NCBI GenBank assembly: GCA_020241125.1
Contig: GCA_020241125.1_4708.1
Strand: one strand, 5' to 3'
Source: a phage
DNA length: 64,000 nucleotides
Of the stretch, positions 11,123 through 57,387 are shown piece after piece. The notes beneath the pieces are model-generated. The model did not search any database, was not told where the DNA came from, and saw only the letters and a list, made by a program, of their open reading frames with translations. How positions within the stretch are numbered: position 1 is the first letter of the stretch; every line of letters starts with the position of its first letter. The position numbers and the translations under genes are program-made.

Positions 11123-11272
11123 CGTCAACCTCCATCAGATTGAAAACTATCACGCATAATACATTTCCCTTTTCTTGTTCTTATCGAGCCGACAGCCGAC
11201 GGTTTCAGCATCGTTCCTAGCGCGAGAACGACCTTACGTGTTGTCTATGCCTTATTCATCGCAGGCGTCTGT

Positions 11273-11296
11273 CACCTAGGTAATGTAAGCGTCAAA
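11273..11296 (-). promoter_or_regulatory. conserved ~31-bp motif, copy 1 (candidate phage promoter)
   Basis: CACCTAGGTAATGTAAGCGTCAAA on plus; lies between hairpin 11322..11370 and start of 9686..11122. Confidence 0.4.
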
Positions 11297-11321
11297 TTTT
11301 TTCTATTCGCAACAATAAACG

Positions 11322-11370
11322 GCATAGAAACCTCCCCCAACCCTTGCGGGCTGAGGGAGGCTGACTTATG
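11322..11370. terminator. GC-rich palindromic hairpin family member downstream of putative MCP gene
   Basis: GGCATAGAAA-CCTCCCCCAACCCTTGCGGGCTGAGGGAGG-CTGACTTATG. Confidence 0.5.
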
Positions 11371-11459
11371 TATCACGGTGCCGGATGAATGTCCGGTGCA
11401 ATGAAACCATCCGCAACGTTGTCGTCAAGAATATCATCCAACGAAGCAGCTACGGTAGT

Positions 11460-17554: not shown

Positions 17555-17629
17555 CGTTTTTACCTTTCTATGTTAGGTGGGTTGCGGATAGAAGAATCAA
17601 TGCATAGACTGATTTAAGTTTGTTAAGGT

Positions 17630-18532
17630 TTACTTAGTCTTCGAGTTACAAGGACTGACATGTTGTTGTACTCGTTGAATCGTATCGTAGTACGGGTTAG
17701 ATTGGTTGAACATGCTGTTGTGTGGATGATAGCCGTATGGCGCATTTTGCCTTGTTGATGAGAAACCTTGTTGAGAAGGACGATTTGAATTAACCGCGAG
17801 TACGTAGTAAACCAAATTTTGACGGTCGAACGTTCCTTCGTTTTTGAAGGTGTCGGCGTAGGTGTTTATCGCTGGAGCGAGTCTATCACCATCGGCGGTA
17901 ATAATTGTACCGTCTGGGTAAACTTCACGAACGACGCACCATGTTCCGATAAGAACGTCTTTGGGCGGCGTATTGCCGTATCCGGTTGTAACGGTAAGGT
18001 AAGTATCGAACCCTTCAGAACAACAAGGATGACGATAGATAGGTCCTGTCATTTCCGTTCTATCGGTATCGTCGCATTTCTCTATCGAGAGCGATGGTGT
18101 GTCGGTTTTGAAATTGTCAAATTCTTTCTTTAAGTCGATTACAGGTTCTTTCGTATAGTACTTCTTGATTGCTTTGACGTAAAGATCAGGAACGGTTGTC
18201 AGCATTCCGTTATACCTGATTCTCAGGTTTTCGAGTAATCCAAAGATACTCGCGCATGCTTGTTCGCGAGGTTTTGTAAGATAAGAGATCCCCCCAGGAA
18301 CGCTGGGATCTTTGAGAAAGAAGATTGCGTTATTGTCGTTGTGCAGTGCGTTGAAGAAAACGATTGATTCGATATATACGGAGCATAGGCTGTCGTTGGC
18401 GTCGTCAGATAACACCCAGATGCACTCATCGGTCGTCTTGTTTAAAAGTTCTGTTTTGTCCACCAAACGTTGTTTCATTGCGAGGAAATGTGCCTGTTGT
18501 TCAGCGGATAATTCACGATAAATAGTGGTCAT
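17630..18532 (-). CDS. hypothetical protein, paralog A of an HPxC/YPDG pair (300 aa)
   Basis: Start trimmed to ATG 18532 (AAGGAG 6 nt upstream); shares PIYxHPxC, DxYLTxTxG, GxWxxxREVYPDGxIxT with 18618..19391. Confidence 0.75.
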   Translation of the reverse strand: MTTIYRELSAEQQAHFLAMKQRLVDKTELLNKTTDECIWVLSDDANDSLCSVYIESIVFFNALHNDNNAIFFLKDPSVPGGISYLTKPREQACASIFGLLENLRIRYNGMLTTVPDLYVKAIKKYYTKEPVIDLKKEFDNFKTDTPSLSIEKCDDTDRTEMTGPIYRHPCCSEGFDTYLTVTTGYGNTPPKDVLIGTWCVVREVYPDGTIITADGDRLAPAINTYADTFKNEGTFDRQNLVYYVLAVNSNRPSQQGFSSTRQNAPYGYHPHNSMFNQSNPYYDTIQRVQQHVSPCNSKTK

Positions 18533-18617
18533 GTTGAGCTCCTTGATTACGATAAGGATGATTGCGGTTTTGTGATGCTGGTAGGGCCCTAAACAAAGGA
18601 GCCCTACCAATATTGGG

Positions 18618-19391
18618 TTACTCAGGATCGGCGTAGAAATGGTGAGGATAGCCGGAGTACGATCCCGCGTTACCGGCTATGGATTCTTTCTGGGAATCGA
18701 CGACGAGCGCATAGAACTGTCGGGAATTTGTTAGCGTTGAGAAATAAGCGGAAAGGACTTTTTCATTCAACGCATCGCAAGGTAGACAGGTGCGACCGCA
18801 AAACGTCACGATACGGCCGTCGGGATAGATCTCACGAATCATTCTCCACTCACCGATATCCACTGGTGATGGCGCTGCTACACCACCTGTTATCGTTAAG
18901 TAACGATCGTACGTGGTATGGCATTCAGGATGAATATAGATCGGCTTGTTCGTTTCGACAGGTTCCGAAGTATCTCGACGACTAAGAAGCTCAACGACTT
19001 CAAGATAAATCGTTGGTAGATCGCGGAGAATACCGGTGCTACGACGTTTCTTTGTGATTCGCGGACGAATCTCGTTGAGAGCGTATTCGAGCTTACGTTC
19101 AGCTTCGTACGCATCGAGTTTTATCAGGCGACCCGGTTCATCGGAATGATCCTGAGTTACGTAAACGAAATACGCGTTGCCTTTTGCAGCGTGAAAGATT
19201 CGAGCGACCTTAAATGTTTCTACGGTACGATACCCAAGGCGCGATTGATTTTCCACAGGAGAAAATATCCAATGTCGTCCTTCGTCCGCCTCAACAATTT
19301 CGTTGAAACTATCCGTTTGTTCTGGGACCTGGTAGTCAGCCATTAATGTATCAAGAGCGTCGTCAGCCAGTTTGATGTAAATATCTGTCAT
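18618..19391 (-). CDS. hypothetical protein, paralog B of an HPxC/YPDG pair (257 aa)
   Basis: ORF-track N-terminus (GTG 19604) reads through the hairpin and motif; ATG 19391 has GAGGA 7 nt upstream. Confidence 0.75.
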   Translation of the reverse strand: MTDIYIKLADDALDTLMADYQVPEQTDSFNEIVEADEGRHWIFSPVENQSRLGYRTVETFKVARIFHAAKGNAYFVYVTQDHSDEPGRLIKLDAYEAERKLEYALNEIRPRITKKRRSTGILRDLPTIYLEVVELLSRRDTSEPVETNKPIYIHPECHTTYDRYLTITGGVAAPSPVDIGEWRMIREIYPDGRIVTFCGRTCLPCDALNEKVLSAYFSTLTNSRQFYALVVDSQKESIAGNAGSYSGYPHHFYADPE

Positions 19392-19447
19392 GTTTGTATC
19401 CTCGGCTATTAAGAGAAATTTACAGTGATAACAGTAACCGTTGTTAT

Positions 19448-19478
19448 CACCTAGGTAATGTAGTCGCGAAATAAACTG
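19448..19478 (-). promoter_or_regulatory. conserved ~31-bp motif, copy 2 (candidate phage promoter)
   Basis: CACCTAGGTAATGTAGTCGCGAAATAAACTG; between hairpin 19490..19531 and ATG 19391. Confidence 0.45.
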
Positions 19479-19489
19479 GGTTAGACAGT

Positions 19490-19531
19490 ATATGACCCTC
19501 TCCCAACCCGTAAGGGAAGGGAGAGGGAATA
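19490..19531. terminator. GC-rich palindromic hairpin family member
   Basis: CCCTCTCCCAACCCGTAAGGGAAGGGAGAGGG directly after stop of 19532..20899. Confidence 0.5.
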
Positions 19532-20899
19532 TTAAACGGTTGGACGAACAGTATTGTCTTTTTCTGGTGCAATCCATAACGTGACTGTACCATGGCATGT
19601 CCACTGCGGTTCACGCACAGAAGAACCTGCCATTGTAACAGCGCAATCGGTACGCATGATAACCCCGTATGCTTCGCAGAGATTGTTATCCTGCATCCAC
19701 ACAACTTTAGCGGGCATGCCAGGATACAACAAATCCATGTTTGCGTATTCCCACACCAACTGCATCGTTCTACCGCGTAATCCGGCAGTATTGCTTAATT
19801 CACGCCATCGGTTATCGGTTACGCGTCCCATCCCTTTCGCCACTTTCACGTTATCGCTACGTTCTTCAGTTACGTACTCGCTAACGTTTACGGTACGACT
19901 GATGATCGTATCACCCCCTTTTGATAATGTCATTCCCTGACTCATCTGACTTGCCGAAACAAAACGCCCACCCGCATTACCTAACAACGAAGCCGCGTTA
20001 TTGATGTCGCTTACCGACGCCCCTCTCGTACACGCAATTTCCACGTATTTGTCACGATTGATCCAGGTCTTGTCCATGCCCGGAAACATATCGGCAGGAT
20101 AGTTGTAAAAGATCGCCGTGCGCCGACCGTCAGAGAAACGGGTTTCGTCGTATAAGGGGTAGATATACAGATACGGGGATTGATAATAACAACCGACGTC
20201 AGCTGAATAAATACCGACCTGGTTCTGTATTTTATCTACGAGATCCATCGCATTGGTACCGTGTGGAAGAATAAGCAACTTGAATGGGTTGTCGTTATTC
20301 GGTGCAACAATATCCACACCCTGCATTTTGAATCCGGTGTCAGCTTCAACCGCAGAAAGTATCTTGCTGAATTCAAGTCGCAGTACATCCAGCACTTTCG
20401 ACCCAGTATAGTTCTCACCGGTTTCTGATTGCATGAAGCTTTCAAGAACAGGATCGAACAGTTGAAATTGAAGATCGACCATTTGTTCGTAGTCTTTCTT
20501 CGAAGAATCGGTTGCGGTACGTTCGTCGGTAGCGGACATACGACTGTCTACGGTTGTTAAACAAACCGCTCGGTAGACGTAAGCTTGTGCGGCATCGTCT
20601 ACGGTTTGGCGTTGTCCGCGCATCAGGCTGTACGCCTGCACGATGATGCGCATTTTAAGTTGTTGTTGGTACGGTAGAATGTATTTTCCGTAACTGCCGG
20701 GCGGGAACTTTACAGAGATATAGAGTTCATCTCCAGCGTTACGTTCATAGTCTCGATACGTGTGGACTTGAGTCACTAAAGGAACAGACACCGTCATTGA
20801 CGGCGTGATTAATTCCGCGGTGACTTTATACGCAACAGCAACTGCTTCCTGCGCAAATGTACCGATATACCGTCCTAACGGCGTCTGTTTGTAATCCAT
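19532..20899 (-). CDS. hypothetical virion-type protein (455 aa)
   Basis: ORF; stop of upstream gene 2 nt before ATG. Confidence 0.8.
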   Translation of the reverse strand: MDYKQTPLGRYIGTFAQEAVAVAYKVTAELITPSMTVSVPLVTQVHTYRDYERNAGDELYISVKFPPGSYGKYILPYQQQLKMRIIVQAYSLMRGQRQTVDDAAQAYVYRAVCLTTVDSRMSATDERTATDSSKKDYEQMVDLQFQLFDPVLESFMQSETGENYTGSKVLDVLRLEFSKILSAVEADTGFKMQGVDIVAPNNDNPFKLLILPHGTNAMDLVDKIQNQVGIYSADVGCYYQSPYLYIYPLYDETRFSDGRRTAIFYNYPADMFPGMDKTWINRDKYVEIACTRGASVSDINNAASLLGNAGGRFVSASQMSQGMTLSKGGDTIISRTVNVSEYVTEERSDNVKVAKGMGRVTDNRWRELSNTAGLRGRTMQLVWEYANMDLLYPGMPAKVVWMQDNNLCEAYGVIMRTDCAVTMAGSSVREPQWTCHGTVTLWIAPEKDNTVRPTV

Positions 20900-24748: not shown

Positions 24749-24792
24749 CGCAGATTCCTGTTTGAAAGATAAGATATCACATGATGGTCGAC

Positions 24793-24830
24793 AGCATAAA
24801 GCCCACCCCGAAGGGCGGGCTGTTTATGCG
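24793..24830. terminator. GC-rich palindromic hairpin family member
   Basis: AGCATAAA-GCCCACCCCGAAGGGCGGGC-TGTTTATGCG. Confidence 0.45.
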
Positions 24831-24836
24831 TACGGA

Positions 24837-33410: not shown

Positions 33411-33426
33411 AAGATAAACCTGAGCG

Positions 33427-33472
33427 GCATAGAACCCTCTCCCAACCCGTAAGGGAAGGGAGAGGGGATATG
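33427..33472. terminator. GC-rich palindromic hairpin family member
   Basis: CCCTCTCCCAACCCGTAAGGGAAGGGAGAGGG (core identical to copy at 19496) after stop of codon-optimised 33489..34811. Confidence 0.5.
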
Positions 33473-33488
33473 TCAGTTTATTAACTGA

Positions 33489-49399: not shown

Positions 49400-51151
49400 A
49401 TGAGCGAACAAGAACGAAAACCTAAGAAGAAACTGCTCGGTATTCAATGTCGACACATCAGCTATAACGAAGCGAACGATGGCAGCAAGAACGACCTCAT
49501 GATCGCAAAAGAGATCATGTTCTTCGATGATAATACGCAAGCGACGAACCTTCGCTTCTTCGAGAATTACAAACGTCCGTTTTGGGTGACGGTAGAGAGT
49601 AAACGTAAGAACAAATATAAAAAGGAAAGCGAGAAGCTCTCGCATGTGCGTCGCTACGATGTCCGCCAAAGCGAACTGGTTGAAAAGATCAGCTCGGTAC
49701 TTTATAAAAGACGTGCTGACGATAACACCCGTTTACAGCAGCTTGCACGGAGTCCATACCTCTATGGAACGGACGTTAGCGCCAGCTGTTATTTAAAAAC
49801 CCAGTACAACACAAAATGGCCGGAATACGTCGATAAATTACCCGCTTCCATTGCCTGTTTCGATATCGAAACCGACGTTGTCCACGGACACGGTAAGATC
49901 GTTTGTATGTCTATTACAATGGGATACAATGCGATACTTTGCTATACCAAGGACTTCGTTGGTCATATTCCGAATGCCATTGAGAAAACCCATGAGAAGA
50001 TTCGATATTACCTGGCCGAACGTCTGAATACCAAAGAAGATCCCCACGCATTCGAAAAATATCAGTACGATGTTCGAATCGTAGAAAGCCCGGCACAAGC
50101 GGTCATCCAATGCATGCAGAAGGTTCACGAATGGCAGCCGGATTATCTCCTTGGCTGGAATATCGCGTTCGATATTCCGCGCATGCTCCAGGCACTGAAC
50201 GAGGAAGGGTATCGTCCCGAGGATGTTTTCTCCGATCCCCGTATACCACCTAAATATCGTATTGCTCGCTGGGTACCACCGAAGACCGACAAGGTATCTG
50301 CTTCAGGTCGTAAAACCAACCTTACCCTTGAGCAAACCTGGCCGATGTTTTATACGATGGCTACGTATCAGGTTATGGATGCGATGTGTGGCTATAAGTT
50401 CGTTCGTTTAGGAAGACCGGATGAAGGACGCTATTCACTCGATGCGGTGTTAGAGCGAAATAAATGCCATACGAAATTAAAAGCTATTCCTGGTACAGAG
50501 GGGTTCACGGAGCTTGCCTGGCACGAAGAGATGCAAACGAACCATCAAATCGACTACGGCGTATATAACCTTTGGGATAACCAGGGTATTGAGGCGTTGG
50601 ACCAGAAAACAAAAGACTATTCGATGACCATCCCTATCCGTTTAGCGGCGTCGGATTTGAAAGATTTCAGTTCTAACCCTAAACGTATCTGCGATAAACT
50701 TTTCTTCGTTTATCTTAACCGTGGGGAAGTCATGGGATGTACCGCTGACGACATGACCCAGGAAGAAGATAAGTGGGTTATCTCACGAGCTGGACATATC
50801 GTCACATTACCATGCGATCTCATGGCTGACAACGGCATTCATCTCTTCTGGGATATGCCGAACCTGAGAAGTTATATCCGTCTATTCGTTGCAGACCTTG
50901 ACATTAGCAGTTCATACCCGAATGGGCAGATCCTGTTGAATCTATCCAGAGCGTGTGTTTTTCGCGAGCTCTCACGCATTGAGGGCGTCTCTGACTATCA
51001 ATTCAGGAAGTTAGGTATCAACTTTATTACCGGAGGTAAAACGAACGCTGTAGACTTCTGTAGAATCGTTTATAAAGCACCATCGATGTTTGAACTTTTA
51101 GAACATTTCGATGCAACGCGTCCAAAAGAGGAAGCGCGGACCATCGAATGA
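49400..51151 (+). CDS. family-B DNA polymerase N-terminal fragment: 3'-5' exonuclease domain plus polymerase motif A (583 aa)
   Basis: Exo I ACFDIETD, Exo II YLLGWNIAFDIPRML, Exo III YSLDAVLER, motif A DISSSYPN, degenerate motif B-like KLGINFITGG; ORF ends before any motif C (YGDTDS). Confidence 0.75.
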   Translation: MSEQERKPKKKLLGIQCRHISYNEANDGSKNDLMIAKEIMFFDDNTQATNLRFFENYKRPFWVTVESKRKNKYKKESEKLSHVRRYDVRQSELVEKISSVLYKRRADDNTRLQQLARSPYLYGTDVSASCYLKTQYNTKWPEYVDKLPASIACFDIETDVVHGHGKIVCMSITMGYNAILCYTKDFVGHIPNAIEKTHEKIRYYLAERLNTKEDPHAFEKYQYDVRIVESPAQAVIQCMQKVHEWQPDYLLGWNIAFDIPRMLQALNEEGYRPEDVFSDPRIPPKYRIARWVPPKTDKVSASGRKTNLTLEQTWPMFYTMATYQVMDAMCGYKFVRLGRPDEGRYSLDAVLERNKCHTKLKAIPGTEGFTELAWHEEMQTNHQIDYGVYNLWDNQGIEALDQKTKDYSMTIPIRLAASDLKDFSSNPKRICDKLFFVYLNRGEVMGCTADDMTQEEDKWVISRAGHIVTLPCDLMADNGIHLFWDMPNLRSYIRLFVADLDISSSYPNGQILLNLSRACVFRELSRIEGVSDYQFRKLGINFITGGKTNAVDFCRIVYKAPSMFELLEHFDATRPKEEARTIE

Positions 51152-52306: not shown

Positions 52307-52705
52307 TTATGCTTCGCAATCAGCTGAAGGCGTCGCGCCTTTCTTACCAGCGATACGCCAAATCCGACACGCTGGGTAATGGTTAACCTCTAGAGAGCAA
52401 GGAATGTTATATTTCTCTTCCAGCGCATAAAGACATTTCGTTAGCTGCTCCAGCGCGTTCTCGTCGTGTCGTAACGCGTGGTGGCCTAATCGATGTTGGT
52501 CGTTCTTTATATACGCCTCGAAGAGAACATGTTGGCGATGTACGCTGACGTTTACAGCCTCGAGTATAGCTTGGTCGAGCATACGACTAAAGCACATCAA
52601 CGAGTCAGATACGTTTTCTCGCTTAACCAGATCGATCATGGCGGGAATATACGAATGGTCGATGTTATCGATGACCGCTTTAGCGACGGAATCAGCAACG
52701 TTCAT
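52307..52705 (-). CDS. hypothetical small protein (132 aa), tandem paralog of 52743..53138
   Basis: Shares VKAVxDNIDH and EEKYNIPxSLEVN blocks with the next gene. Confidence 0.7.
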   Translation of the reverse strand: MNVADSVAKAVIDNIDHSYIPAMIDLVKRENVSDSLMCFSRMLDQAILEAVNVSVHRQHVLFEAYIKNDQHRLGHHALRHDENALEQLTKCLYALEEKYNIPCSLEVNHYPACRIWRIAGKKGATPSADCEA

Positions 52706-52742
52706 CTTTTTTAATCCCTAGTTTGTTATTGATCACGTATAT

Positions 52743-53138
52743 TTACTCTTTGACGTCAGTTGTCGTTTCGACATGCTTCTCACTACTGACGTACCAGAGC
52801 AGGTACGCTGGGAAAAGATTGACCTCTAAGCTAAATGGGATATTGTATTTCTCTTCCATTTTACAGAGATGTTCTTTAAGTAAATTTCTCGCGTCTCTGT
52901 CACCACGAACAGAGTGCCAGTCTAGTTCTTTGTTCTCCTTTACCAGGACCTCTACGATGATACGTTGCTCGTGAACCTCGGTTTTCACAGTGAAAAGTAA
53001 ATCGCTGCTATCCAAACGGGTAAAACGAATGTATGAACCAGGTGTTTTTTCTTGTTTAATAATATCGATCATGGTAGAAATGCGCGGATGATCGATGTTG
53101 TCGTTAACAGCTTTAACGATGGATTCTACAATGCTCAT
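52743..53138 (-). CDS. hypothetical small protein (131 aa), tandem paralog of 52307..52705
   Basis: Shares conserved blocks with previous gene. Confidence 0.7.
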   Translation of the reverse strand: MSIVESIVKAVNDNIDHPRISTMIDIIKQEKTPGSYIRFTRLDSSDLLFTVKTEVHEQRIIVEVLVKENKELDWHSVRGDRDARNLLKEHLCKMEEKYNIPFSLEVNLFPAYLLWYVSSEKHVETTTDVKE

Positions 53139-53170
53139 TTTTTATCCTTAATGTTATCGATTTGGAAATA

Positions 53171-53938
53171 TTACTTATTTTTGCTTTCTTTATAGACAGT
53201 TGTTACCCACGATGGGAAAGCCGGATGGAAACAGAGCGTGAACGTAACTGTCGTATCGTATTTAAACGCACAGTTCACTAACCGGGTATCTAACGTTTTC
53301 CTTAATCCGTCATCATCGTTATCGATGATGGTCATATCTCTTAATATCCCAAGCACGTTAACGCCATCGGGTGTCTGGGTTACGACAAGTCGTCGTAATG
53401 GCCCGCATGTATAGTCACGTACAAATCCTTTCTTCGGGTCCGATACCCTGTTTAACGCATCGTGATTTTTGATGAATTCATCGGCGATACAATAGGTTTG
53501 TTCCCTTGCTTTATCGGGATCGTATTCTGCTAATAGTTCCTTCGTGTCGAATGTTATCGCGTTATTAGCATTCGATTCAGAAGGGAAACATAAAACTAAA
53601 CGAACAGGGTATTCATATTGATCTGTTCTCGTTTCGAAAGCATTAGCTAAACACGGCTTGTATGCCTTTGCGTCGACATTGTCCAAACACGGATGCAATA
53701 ATGCGTGAATAACGGCACCATCGTCAGTTAAACCGAATTCCAGAAATTGTGTTTCATCGACATCCGTGACGGTTTTCTGAAGATACGCTTTACCGTTAAC
53801 GATATCGGTATCCCACATATCGTCGTTTAACGATTCTTCAAACTTATCGAATATATGGTTTACGAAATTGATGAGTTCATCAATACGACACTGTTGGTTG
53901 AATTCGATTAATCGTTGAACTTTATCTCTGATAGACAT
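53171..53938 (-). CDS. hypothetical protein (255 aa)
   Basis: ORF. Confidence 0.7.
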   Translation of the reverse strand: MSIRDKVQRLIEFNQQCRIDELINFVNHIFDKFEESLNDDMWDTDIVNGKAYLQKTVTDVDETQFLEFGLTDDGAVIHALLHPCLDNVDAKAYKPCLANAFETRTDQYEYPVRLVLCFPSESNANNAITFDTKELLAEYDPDKAREQTYCIADEFIKNHDALNRVSDPKKGFVRDYTCGPLRRLVVTQTPDGVNVLGILRDMTIIDNDDDGLRKTLDTRLVNCAFKYDTTVTFTLCFHPAFPSWVTTVYKESKNK

Positions 53939-53940
53939 GA

Positions 53941-54405
53941 TTACTCCTTAGTTCCTTCTTCGTTGGACGTATATTCCACATAGTGGAATTCACGGCCGTC
54001 GATAAACTTGAGTGCTACTGTAATAGGGAAATCACACGGCATAGCGGATTTCGTAAATGCGTTATCAGCAACATCAGATAACCGACGTATGGTATTCTCC
54101 CCTTTTGCTATGAATGGGAATTTAATGTTAATAAGGATACGGTGTTTGTAAATAGTAAAGACGACAGTGCTGTCGAAATGTACCCCAGTTAAAGTCATTG
54201 TTGGGATACGTTTTACAACGGAGAAATGTGTCCCGTCAATATCGCTACTTCCCACTGACCATTCATCGGAATTGCGTAGACTTTTCTTGAGGATATCAAC
54301 GCTTTGCGTGACCACCTCAGCAACTTGTACGACGTACGTGTCTTTATGCATGTCGAAAAGTTCGTTGACGTTAGATTTGAATGAATAAACCGTTGCCATT
54401 ATCAT
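53941..54405 (-). CDS. hypothetical small protein (154 aa)
   Basis: ORF; C-terminal HYVEYTSNEEG resembles neighbours. Confidence 0.65.
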   Translation of the reverse strand: MIMATVYSFKSNVNELFDMHKDTYVVQVAEVVTQSVDILKKSLRNSDEWSVGSSDIDGTHFSVVKRIPTMTLTGVHFDSTVVFTIYKHRILINIKFPFIAKGENTIRRLSDVADNAFTKSAMPCDFPITVALKFIDGREFHYVEYTSNEEGTKE

Positions 54406-56171: not shown

Positions 56172-56597
56172 TTAATTCAGTGATGCATATAAGGCATAAC
56201 GACTGTAGATCTCAACCGCCGGTCCGTTATGCGTTAACAGACCGTCTCGGCTGTAATACTGGAAAAATGAATAACGTTTGTCGAAGTGATAAACAAAAGC
56301 AATGTCTTTGCCGTCAAAACCTGTGATGCGTGGTCTGTTTTTATCTAGCAATGCTTTGACTTTTAACAGTGTTGCCGCACGTGCTTTAACGTTAGGGATC
56401 AAGCCATCACAATCGATATAAACAGTGTAACCTGTTTCAGATGTTGCGACGGTCGTATTGCGATTGACGCGGAAGATTTTTGTTTCGTATGTACTATCTT
56501 CAAGAATTGGGTTTTGTTTTTCGTATTTTCGTTTACGCAGAAATTCTACAACGGTGATATAGTTAGCGGTAATATGCCCGGTTATAGCTTGTAACAT
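56172..56597 (-). CDS. hypothetical protein (141 aa), preceded by conserved 31-bp motif
   Basis: ORF with AAGGA SD 8 nt upstream. Confidence 0.7.
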   Translation of the reverse strand: MLQAITGHITANYITVVEFLRKRKYEKQNPILEDSTYETKIFRVNRNTTVATSETGYTVYIDCDGLIPNVKARAATLLKVKALLDKNRPRITGFDGKDIAFVYHFDKRYSFFQYYSRDGLLTHNGPAVEIYSRYALYASLN

Positions 56598-56665
56598 CTT
56601 GACATCCTTTTATATTGGATTGGTTGCAATTGTCTTAAATAGATGATAAGATATTTTGCTCTTAT

Positions 56666-56696
56666 CACTAAGGTAATGTAGTCGCGAAATAAACTG
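56666..56696 (-). promoter_or_regulatory. conserved ~31-bp motif, copy 3 (candidate phage promoter)
   Basis: CACTAAGGTAATGTAGTCGCGAAATAAACTG; between hairpin 56719..56770 and ATG 56597. Confidence 0.45.
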
Positions 56697-56718
56697 CGTT
56701 AACACGAAATAAAAAACA

Positions 56719-56770
56719 GCATAGAACCCTCCTCCCACATCCTTCAAGAGGACGGTGGGAAGAGGGAGAG
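56719..56770. terminator. GC-rich palindromic hairpin family member
   Basis: CAGCATAGAA-CCCTCCTCCCACATCCTTCAAGAGGACGGTGGGAAGAGGGAG. Confidence 0.45.
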
Positions 56771-56771
56771 A

Positions 56772-57173: not shown

Positions 57174-57219
57174 GGAGTGCTTTTCCTATTTTTATTTTCT
57201 GCACAGGATAAATTCAACG

Positions 57220-57266
57220 GCATAAAGCCCTTCCCTGCCCTTATATGGGGCGGGAAGAGTTTATGA
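57220..57266. terminator. GC-rich palindromic hairpin family member in 214-bp noncoding gap
   Basis: GCATAAA-GCCCTTCCCTGCCCTTATATGGGGCGGGAAGAG-TTTATG. Confidence 0.4.
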
Positions 57267-57387
57267 CCGCAATGAGAATCTCTCACGACAAGCTCACGAC
57301 GATTATCGCATCACCCCGCGAGTGAGGGAGATCAGGATCACCTCCTACGTCGTAACGACAGTAATCCCGTTAACGTCGCCTTAGGCA

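Follow-up and report, generated by a model that had tools for sequence, protein, structure and literature searches.

A lineage-restricted, variable paralog array with an exchangeable N-terminal domain in Goslar-like nucleus-forming phages

A phage-derived stretch of 64,000 nucleotides (contig GCA_020241125.1_4708.1 of assembly GCA_020241125.1; hereafter, the window) carries two neighbouring genes, here termed A and B, whose presence, number and sequence vary among otherwise closely related phages. The window as a whole is closely related to Escherichia phage vB_EcoM_Goslar, a jumbo phage of E. coli that forms a nucleus (Chimalliviridae), and the two are collinear at 80-98% identity per aligned block and at least 90% for the large blocks. 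Both genes lie on the minus strand, begin with ATG and possess a Shine-Dalgarno sequence: B (18618-19391) encodes 257 residues, and A (17630-18532), which follows it, encodes 300. The gene upstream of the pair (19532-20899) is a homolog of Goslar gp48, the baseplate spike cap, and homologs of the stopper and tail-terminator genes are found farther upstream (10.64898/2026.04.21.720040). Downstream are homologs of gp46, gp45 and gp44, which encode small proteins; genes for neck, head and inner-body proteins surround the pair.

A first-pass annotation made from the letters alone had proposed two neighbouring genes of 300 and 257 residues with alignable C-terminal halves. Both open reading frames (ORFs) were recovered, and comparison of A with B by BLASTP (E = 4e-18; 153 residues of the C-terminal halves align at 30% identity) bears out their paralogy. 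The motifs listed there are also present, reading PIYIHPEC, YLTITGG and REIYPDG in B and PIYRHPCC, YLTVTTG and REVYPDG in A. When the B and A subfamilies were compared profile to profile, the C-terminal domains (C-domains) aligned with 99% probability (E = 5e-19), and the N-terminal domains (N-domains), compared with hhalign, aligned with 95% probability (E = 3e-8, 119 columns). Since the N-terminal halves are homologous too, A and B are paralogs over their full length, with N-domains that have diverged far more than the C-domains. In B, the N-domain spans approximately codons 1-135 (18987-19391, minus strand) and is followed by a basic linker, RPRITKKRR, the conserved C-domain (codons 150-234; 18690-18944, minus strand) and a Tyr/His/Pro-rich tail. 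In A, the N-domain (approximately codons 1-125; 18158-18532, minus strand) is followed by a long acidic linker, the conserved C-domain (codons 164-248; 17789-18043, minus strand) and a 52-residue basic tail.

The family to which these proteins belong is restricted to Goslar-like phages. Word-indexed searches found five clusters for A and 19 for B, none of them named, drawn from contigs of ~236-250 kb in E. coli, Shigella and Salmonella assemblies, from metagenome contigs and from short contigs. An exhaustive HMMER search of 1.84 billion representative sequences with a family profile returned only four real clusters at 50% identity, namely the deeply diverged classes A, B, C (P0025) and D (P0026), which share 26-33% identity pairwise; the other matches were one 40-residue fragment of the family (P0029) and two repeat or low-complexity proteins (P0027 and P0028). 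A scan of genome contigs with the spike-cap protein found no relatives, and neither A nor B had a tblastn match among 50,697 phage genomes. The fold, which the first-pass annotation did not recognise, is equally unfamiliar to profile searches of Pfam, PHROGs, PADLOC, NCBIfam and the PDB, which place neither A nor B in a known structural family. Specifically, Pfam gave no match for A or B at E ≤ 1; scans of Pfam and NCBIfam with A, B, C, D and 11 diverse members at permissive thresholds gave nothing useful; PHROGs yielded nothing at E ≤ 0.1 beyond scattered single matches (E 0.06-0.4); PADLOC yielded nothing for A, B and D, and one chance-level match for C (E = 0.019); and a profile search of PDB sequences produced only chance matches (E > 0.7). 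This is thus a protein family without detectable relatives or fold match.

Goslar itself lacks the pair. According to megablast and blastn breakpoints, homology ends at window position 17613 and resumes at 19387, with 82 bp between them in Goslar; the segment 17614-19386 (no strand assigned), which holds both genes, is accordingly a presence/absence polymorphism and one of only two insertions larger than 1 kb that separate the window from Goslar across 64 kb. What Goslar retains is a 25-codon ORF, MTLLIRDPSEYENTRYNHNQFGNNF, standing behind the same promoter as B does in the window. Because this ORF equals the N-terminus of the class D paralog P0026 joined to its C-terminus, it represents an internal deletion, and the IMG/VR genome L019 carries the same remnant. 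The gene annotated as Goslar gp47 (NC_048170 49584-49772, 62 residues) appears, from its sequence, to be artefactual: promoter and leader are translated in the first ~37 codons, and only the last 25 codons, those of the D-class deletion remnant, form an ORF with a ribosome-binding site.

A hidden Markov model-based census of related loci revealed further states of this slot. B and A together occur in the window and in L002, L012, L013 and L014; a gene consisting of the N-domain alone precedes B and A in L005/L006; B, C and D are combined in L003/L004; B, C and a fragment holding the C-domain of D are found in L009/L021; and the remnant alone is left in Goslar and L019. Copy number per genome therefore ranges from a remnant to three, and among the related loci examined the family always occupies the same slot. 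The flanking genes (gp44-gp50) are 95-100% identical in protein sequence to those of the window in all census genomes, as against 49-96% for B and 60-97% for A. Because Goslar and L019 keep only the remnant and other genomes vary in their copy set, A and B are dispensable and polymorphic.

Comparison of alleles showed that the two domains can evolve separately. Between the window and L012, the first ~148 codons of B are saturated (synonymous divergence, dS, 2.6; nonsynonymous divergence, dN, 0.76; Nei-Gojobori estimates), whereas the C-domain of the same gene matches as closely as the flanks do (dS = 0.18, dN = 0.016). At the nucleotide level, identity exceeds 90% except in the interval from the start codon (~19391) to the start of the PIYxHP motif (~18947), where it drops to 28-65%. 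Since the drop is confined to this interval, the N-domain of B is a swappable allelic cassette with sharp recombination boundaries. Among close alleles, dN/dS is 0.13-0.16 for B and 0.15-0.21 for A (structural flanks, 0.02-0.05); A and B are thus real, constrained genes whose close alleles are under purifying selection.

The array is headed by a conserved promoter element, GTTTATTTCGCGACTACATTACCTAGGTGAT (19446-19476, minus strand), which lies upstream of B and is co-oriented with it. The whole Goslar genome, put together from annotated stretches, was scanned with a position weight matrix, for which the 95th percentile of the background is -6.9. The element scores 39.3 bits and, with its T-rich stretch followed by TATATTAC and GTG, belongs by sequence to the early-type promoter class of chimalliviruses. 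Goslar (NC_048170) contains 13 such sites with the consensus AAAnATTTCACGnCTATATTACCTAnGTGAT, each on the minus strand and co-oriented with the genes downstream, and shuffled sequence contains none; they precede, among others, the nuclear-shell gene chmA and gp40, the latter preceding gp39, which encodes a subunit of the non-virion RNA polymerase (nvRNAP). The window has three sites, all on the minus strand, at 11257-11287, 19446-19476 and 56650-56680 (listed also as 11287, 19462 and 56680). The same consensus has been published for N1M2, OBP, 201phi2-1, EL and phiKZ (TATATTAC) and was judged to be early in OBP (PMC7058600), and the early genes of phiKZ, including the shell gene PHIKZ054 (the chmA homolog), carry an early motif read by the virion polymerase (PMC8244752, PMC11077065). 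The element upstream of B matches the phiKZ-like early promoter (TATATTAC in phiKZ, TTTCARRYAKATATTATYWAAGTG in OBP and N1M2) nearly base for base, a likeness that covers the regulatory element and not the A and B proteins. No description of the AAAnATTTCACGnCTATATTACCTAnGTGAT promoter class for Goslar was found in the literature searched. An initial view of a 23-nt motif as a private repeat of two loci was replaced, as its core belongs to the 13-site class, and a scan for sigma-70 promoters and intrinsic terminators was uninformative, as expected for this type of phage.

Membership in the class does not dictate whether a product is packaged. Among the Goslar genes behind the motif, gp214, and gp158 via gp159, are present at >200 copies per virion, while gp75 and gp40 are not abundant. 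In the window, the gp75 homolog (56172-56597, minus strand, 141 residues; present at trace levels in virions) is preceded, at 56598-56771, by a near-duplicate of the ~100-nt cassette of hairpin, promoter and palindromic leader found upstream of B. The 23-nt core, TTTATTTCGCGACTACATTACCT, is identical at the two sites, suggesting that B and the gp75 homolog may share regulation.

The first-pass annotation was right that an upstream motif marks just one of the two genes: the 31-nt element gives 39.3 bits before B and -9.0, a background score, before A. Its explanation, duplication followed by regulatory divergence, was not supported. Each related genome has a single motif, which precedes the first family member at any copy number, and the downstream paralogs share a hairpin at the ribosome-binding site; this is the layout of a transcription unit with one promoter, in which A has no motif of its own because the element heads the whole array. 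The shared element, ATCATCCTTATCGTAATCAAGGAGC (18538-18562, minus strand), would form a small hairpin in which the Shine-Dalgarno sequence AAGGA is paired with TCCTT. At all related loci, elements of this type precede paralogs A, C and D and are not found before B. Paralogs in second or third position have the sequestering element upstream and, in most cases, a further hairpin as well. In the window, the latter is TTGGTAGGGC...GCCCTACCAG (18578-18610, minus strand), which lies between B and A, lacks a U-tract, and was recognised by RNA folding and conservation; the 93-nt intergenic RNA folds at -29 kcal/mol (z = -4.75), and the stem is kept through compensatory changes in L002 and L012-L014. 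Between strains, the loop and inner stem of this hairpin are reverse-complemented (TCCTTTGTTTAGG versus CCTAAACAAAGGA; window versus L014 and L002) with the outer stem kept, a difference that is an inversion within the palindrome. The simplest reading of this arrangement is a single early transcription unit.

Three elements succeed one another upstream of B: a strong hairpin after the spike-cap gene, then GTTTATTTCGCGACTACATTACCTAGGTGAT, then a palindromic leader. The hairpin is GC-rich (CCCTCTCCC...GGGAGAGGG; 19496-19527, minus strand), was identified by RNA folding directly after the spike-cap stop codon, and lies in a 144-nt intergenic RNA that folds at -43.4 kcal/mol (z = -4.35). It is kept in Goslar and at a second site in the window, and in L014 it is placed after an additional gene, X210, rather than after gp48; the late structural operon upstream probably ends at this hairpin. 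A perfect palindrome, GTGATAACA-N8-TGTTATCAC (19425-19450, minus strand), lies in the predicted 5' leader of B, and the copy of the promoter element upstream of the gp75 homolog is followed by a similar GTGATAAG...CTTATCA. An early-operon model would put the transcription start site a few bases 3' of TACATTACCT, at ~19440-19450.

The C-domain follows the pattern PIYxHPx[C/H]...D.YLT...G.W..RE..DG..T..G..P, and the positions common to all four classes are Y152, H154, P155, D162, Y164, L165, V177, G180, W182, R186, E187, D191, G192, T196, G199 and P204 (B numbering throughout). H154, D162, R186, E187, D191 and T196 are the polar residues that are invariant or nearly so over all 26-28 family members. 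Of the invariant His, Cys, Asp and Glu positions that had been proposed as a small catalytic or metal-binding core, the His, Asp and Glu ones (H154, D162, E187 and D191) stand, and the Cys does not: class D (P0026) has His in place of C157, and P0012 has Tyr. B has three additional Cys residues (C198, C202 and C205, in FCGRTCLPC), which are confined to class B and absent from A, C and D. With four metal ligands not kept across the family, it does not qualify as a zinc ribbon or as a Cys4 or Cys3His protein, and an HNH or zinc-finger assignment was dropped on the same ground; a zinc site limited to class B is possible. An H-Y-E type ADP-ribosyltransferase identity for the C-domain was set aside by reasoning from residue spacing and domain size. 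The His, Asp, Arg, Glu and Asp positions persist across four classes that share only 26-33% identity, and a small polar, metal or catalytic site built from His, Asp and Glu/Asp is therefore possible in the C-domain. Several of these residues may instead be structural, because the REVYPDGxIxT..G segment aligns with the strand-turn-strand motif of NHL-repeat propellers, as seen in the repeat protein P0028, and that motif is generic. The likeness to the propeller blade (..IRRIxPDGxVxTxAG..) is a local structural motif and not family membership: A and B have one copy of ~17 residues, no six-bladed repeat and no Pfam NHL hit.

At the other end of the protein, all 26 A- and B-class sequences share M1, T2, Y5 and L8, giving the N-terminus MTxIYxxL; when the four classes and the N-only fragment are taken together, only M1 and T2 remain invariant, with Y5 nearly so. 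AlphaFold2 models built with a 26-sequence alignment gave an alpha/beta N-domain for B at fair confidence, with block means of the predicted local distance difference test (pLDDT) of ~70-92 over residues 1-140, and MTxIYxxL was modelled as the first strand of this folded domain (pLDDT ~87). The C-domain was modelled as beta-rich at low confidence (pLDDT 43-70), and the model of A was weaker overall than that of B. Sequence analysis identified no transmembrane or hydrophobic segment in A or B, and their isoelectric points (pI) are 5.3-5.6; both are thus predicted to be soluble, acidic proteins.

Presence/absence and copy-number variation, decay to fragments, ancient allelic N-domain cassettes in a near-clonal backbone, purifying selection within alleles and an early-type promoter are, in combination, typical of phage genes that act on variable targets in the host (or in a competitor). 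For this reason we favour, at a probability of roughly 0.45, the reading that A and B are early, dispensable host-interaction or counter-defence proteins. The array would be one transcription unit, with the late baseplate-hub operon on one side and a cluster of small genes on the other, driven by a promoter of early type, a class attributed to the virion RNA polymerase; its products would be made early, in the host cytoplasm, and would serve at the interface of phage and host (or phage and phage) as dispensable factors for counter-defence or host takeover. The variable, recombinationally exchangeable N-domain would supply target specificity, and the conserved C-domain a shared activity or docking function, possibly via a metal site of the His/Asp/Glu type. 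Also counted in its favour are the predicted solubility and acidity of both proteins and the virion content of the downstream neighbours: the products of gp46, gp45 and gp44 are absent or at trace levels in Goslar virions (gp46 is not found in the part of Table S4 covered, and gp45 is at ~6 copies per virion).

Several observations pull the other way. The pair adjoins a baseplate spike-cap gene within a structural region, and a profile scan gave no match to known anti-defence or defence families. Early timing derives from the promoter sequence, no transcriptome of a Goslar-type phage having been found in the literature searched, and the promoter class does not exclude packaging, since gp214 and gp158 are abundant virion proteins. 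The low-confidence model of the C-domain provides no check of a metal or catalytic site. Moreover, the selection seen among close alleles is purifying and not positive, so the case for an arms race lies in the allelic cassettes and the presence/absence variation and not in dN/dS values above 1.

A bolder version, which we offer tentatively and regard as doubtful, is that classes A-D constitute a new fold family of E. coli/Salmonella nucleus-forming phages, comprising early cytoplasmic effectors with a metal-dependent C-module and an exchangeable N recognition cassette whose allelic types track host immunity. If so, N-domain types would follow polymorphic immunity, such as systems acting against chimalliviruses outside the phage nucleus or before it forms, and natural phages with zero, two or three copies would differ in host range. 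Among nucleus-forming phages Goslar serves as the E. coli model, and the slot may bear on how such phages cope with defences in the cytoplasm or before the nucleus is built; natural, isogenic-like genomes with the remnant, two or three copies make function directly comparable. Should A and B prove neutral, they would be merely another phage ORFan island.

Alternatively, A and B could be virion cargo, packaged in the head, or else attached close to the baseplate hub, and entering the cell together with the DNA, in the manner of T4 internal proteins or the injected proteins of chimalliviruses, with MTxIYxxL or the C-domain serving as a packaging or docking element. The position of the pair directly downstream of the spike-cap gene, within the neck, head and inner-body block, speaks for this, as do the conserved N-terminus, the two abundant virion proteins encoded behind the same promoter motif, and the many function-unassigned proteins that chimalliviruses package. 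However, 11 diverse family members showed no match to PF12699 (the phiKZ inner-body family) at E ≤ 10, and the profile scans returned no other virion-protein signature. The pair is separated from the late hub operon by the hairpin and by an early-type promoter of its own, the neighbours downstream are absent or at trace levels in the virion data covered, and the conserved N-terminus is modelled within a folded domain and not as a free targeting peptide. Virion mass spectrometry exists for one relative only, Goslar, which has no intact family genes and whose virions assemble and infect without them. We therefore consider cargo unlikely.

We would give still less credence to A and B being factors internal to the phage, regulatory or associated with the nucleus (nucleic-acid-binding proteins, for instance, or shell- or import-associated ones), that tune the phage programme and do not target the host. 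Finally, a selfish or mobile cassette, homing-endonuclease-like or of the addiction type, whose patchiness reflects mobility and not benefit to the phage, would fit the sharply bounded presence/absence in otherwise 95-98% identical genomes and the free-standing HNH/NUMOD1 genes at other Goslar sites, but it is very improbable given that no nuclease (HNH, GIY-YIG and LAGLIDADG in Pfam and NCBIfam), integrase or toxin-antitoxin signature appeared in any library scanned, that the family is always in the same slot and nowhere else among 1.84 billion representative proteins, and that its variation arises by in-place duplication, truncation and domain swap rather than by insertion at new sites.

A hypervariable accessory array in a large phage is of a familiar kind; the clean two-module evolution of this protein family is new. 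T4-like phages contain hyperplastic accessory loci, among them the internal-protein genes ipI, ipII and ipIII, and IPI* blocks the GmrS/GmrD restriction system. Like A and B, the T4 internal proteins are non-essential, are variable or missing between near-identical phages, lie amid conserved genes and have a short conserved N-terminus, and the T4 set is thought to have been shaped by host defence. They have no sequence or fold relation to A and B, however, and are packaged by means of an N-terminal capsid-targeting sequence that the prohead protease removes, whereas A and B have an early-type promoter, two folded domains and a swappable N-domain. Closer to hand, the PF12699 array (phiKZ gp92-97, Goslar gp53-58) also consists of tandem diverged paralogs, lies in the same chimallivirus region, ~5 kb away in the window, and, like the A/B family, is specific to the chimallivirus group. 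Its members are conserved, abundant virion proteins, in contrast to a family that is absent from Goslar, varies in copy number and sequence, and does not match PF12699.

Other differences between the window and its relatives were noted. The second window-specific insertion (52316-53982, ~1.7 kb versus 55 bp in Goslar) holds small genes of 131 and 255 residues and parts of their neighbours; these genes have no Pfam matches and are not A/B family members. The free-standing NUMOD1/HNH homing-endonuclease gene of Goslar, gp69, which lies beside the DNA polymerase gene, is absent here (window 50892-50915 versus Goslar 81183-82966). X210, the extra 210-residue gene of some relatives (L014:3226-3858, L005:3738-4448 and L019:7385-8017, all plus strand), starts 22 nt after the spike-cap gene and ahead of the hairpin, and would therefore belong to the late hub operon. 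Its pattern LYRG...SFTD...QREY is reminiscent of R-S-E ADP-ribosyltransferases, an idea that searches of Pfam, PHROGs and PDB sequences did not support; by tblastn, X210 matches hypothetical proteins encoded by jumbo phages of Erwinia, Shewanella, Serratia and Klebsiella. A recurrent module, in which a GC-rich hairpin is followed at once by (T)TCTATGC(C/T)G, was also observed on the minus strand at 11129-11459, 24749-24836, 33411-33488, 56598-56771 and 57174-57387, and resembles a terminator joined to the TATG-type late promoter of phiKZ. At the A/B slot, TCATATACTG stands in the window and CTTATGCTG in Goslar.

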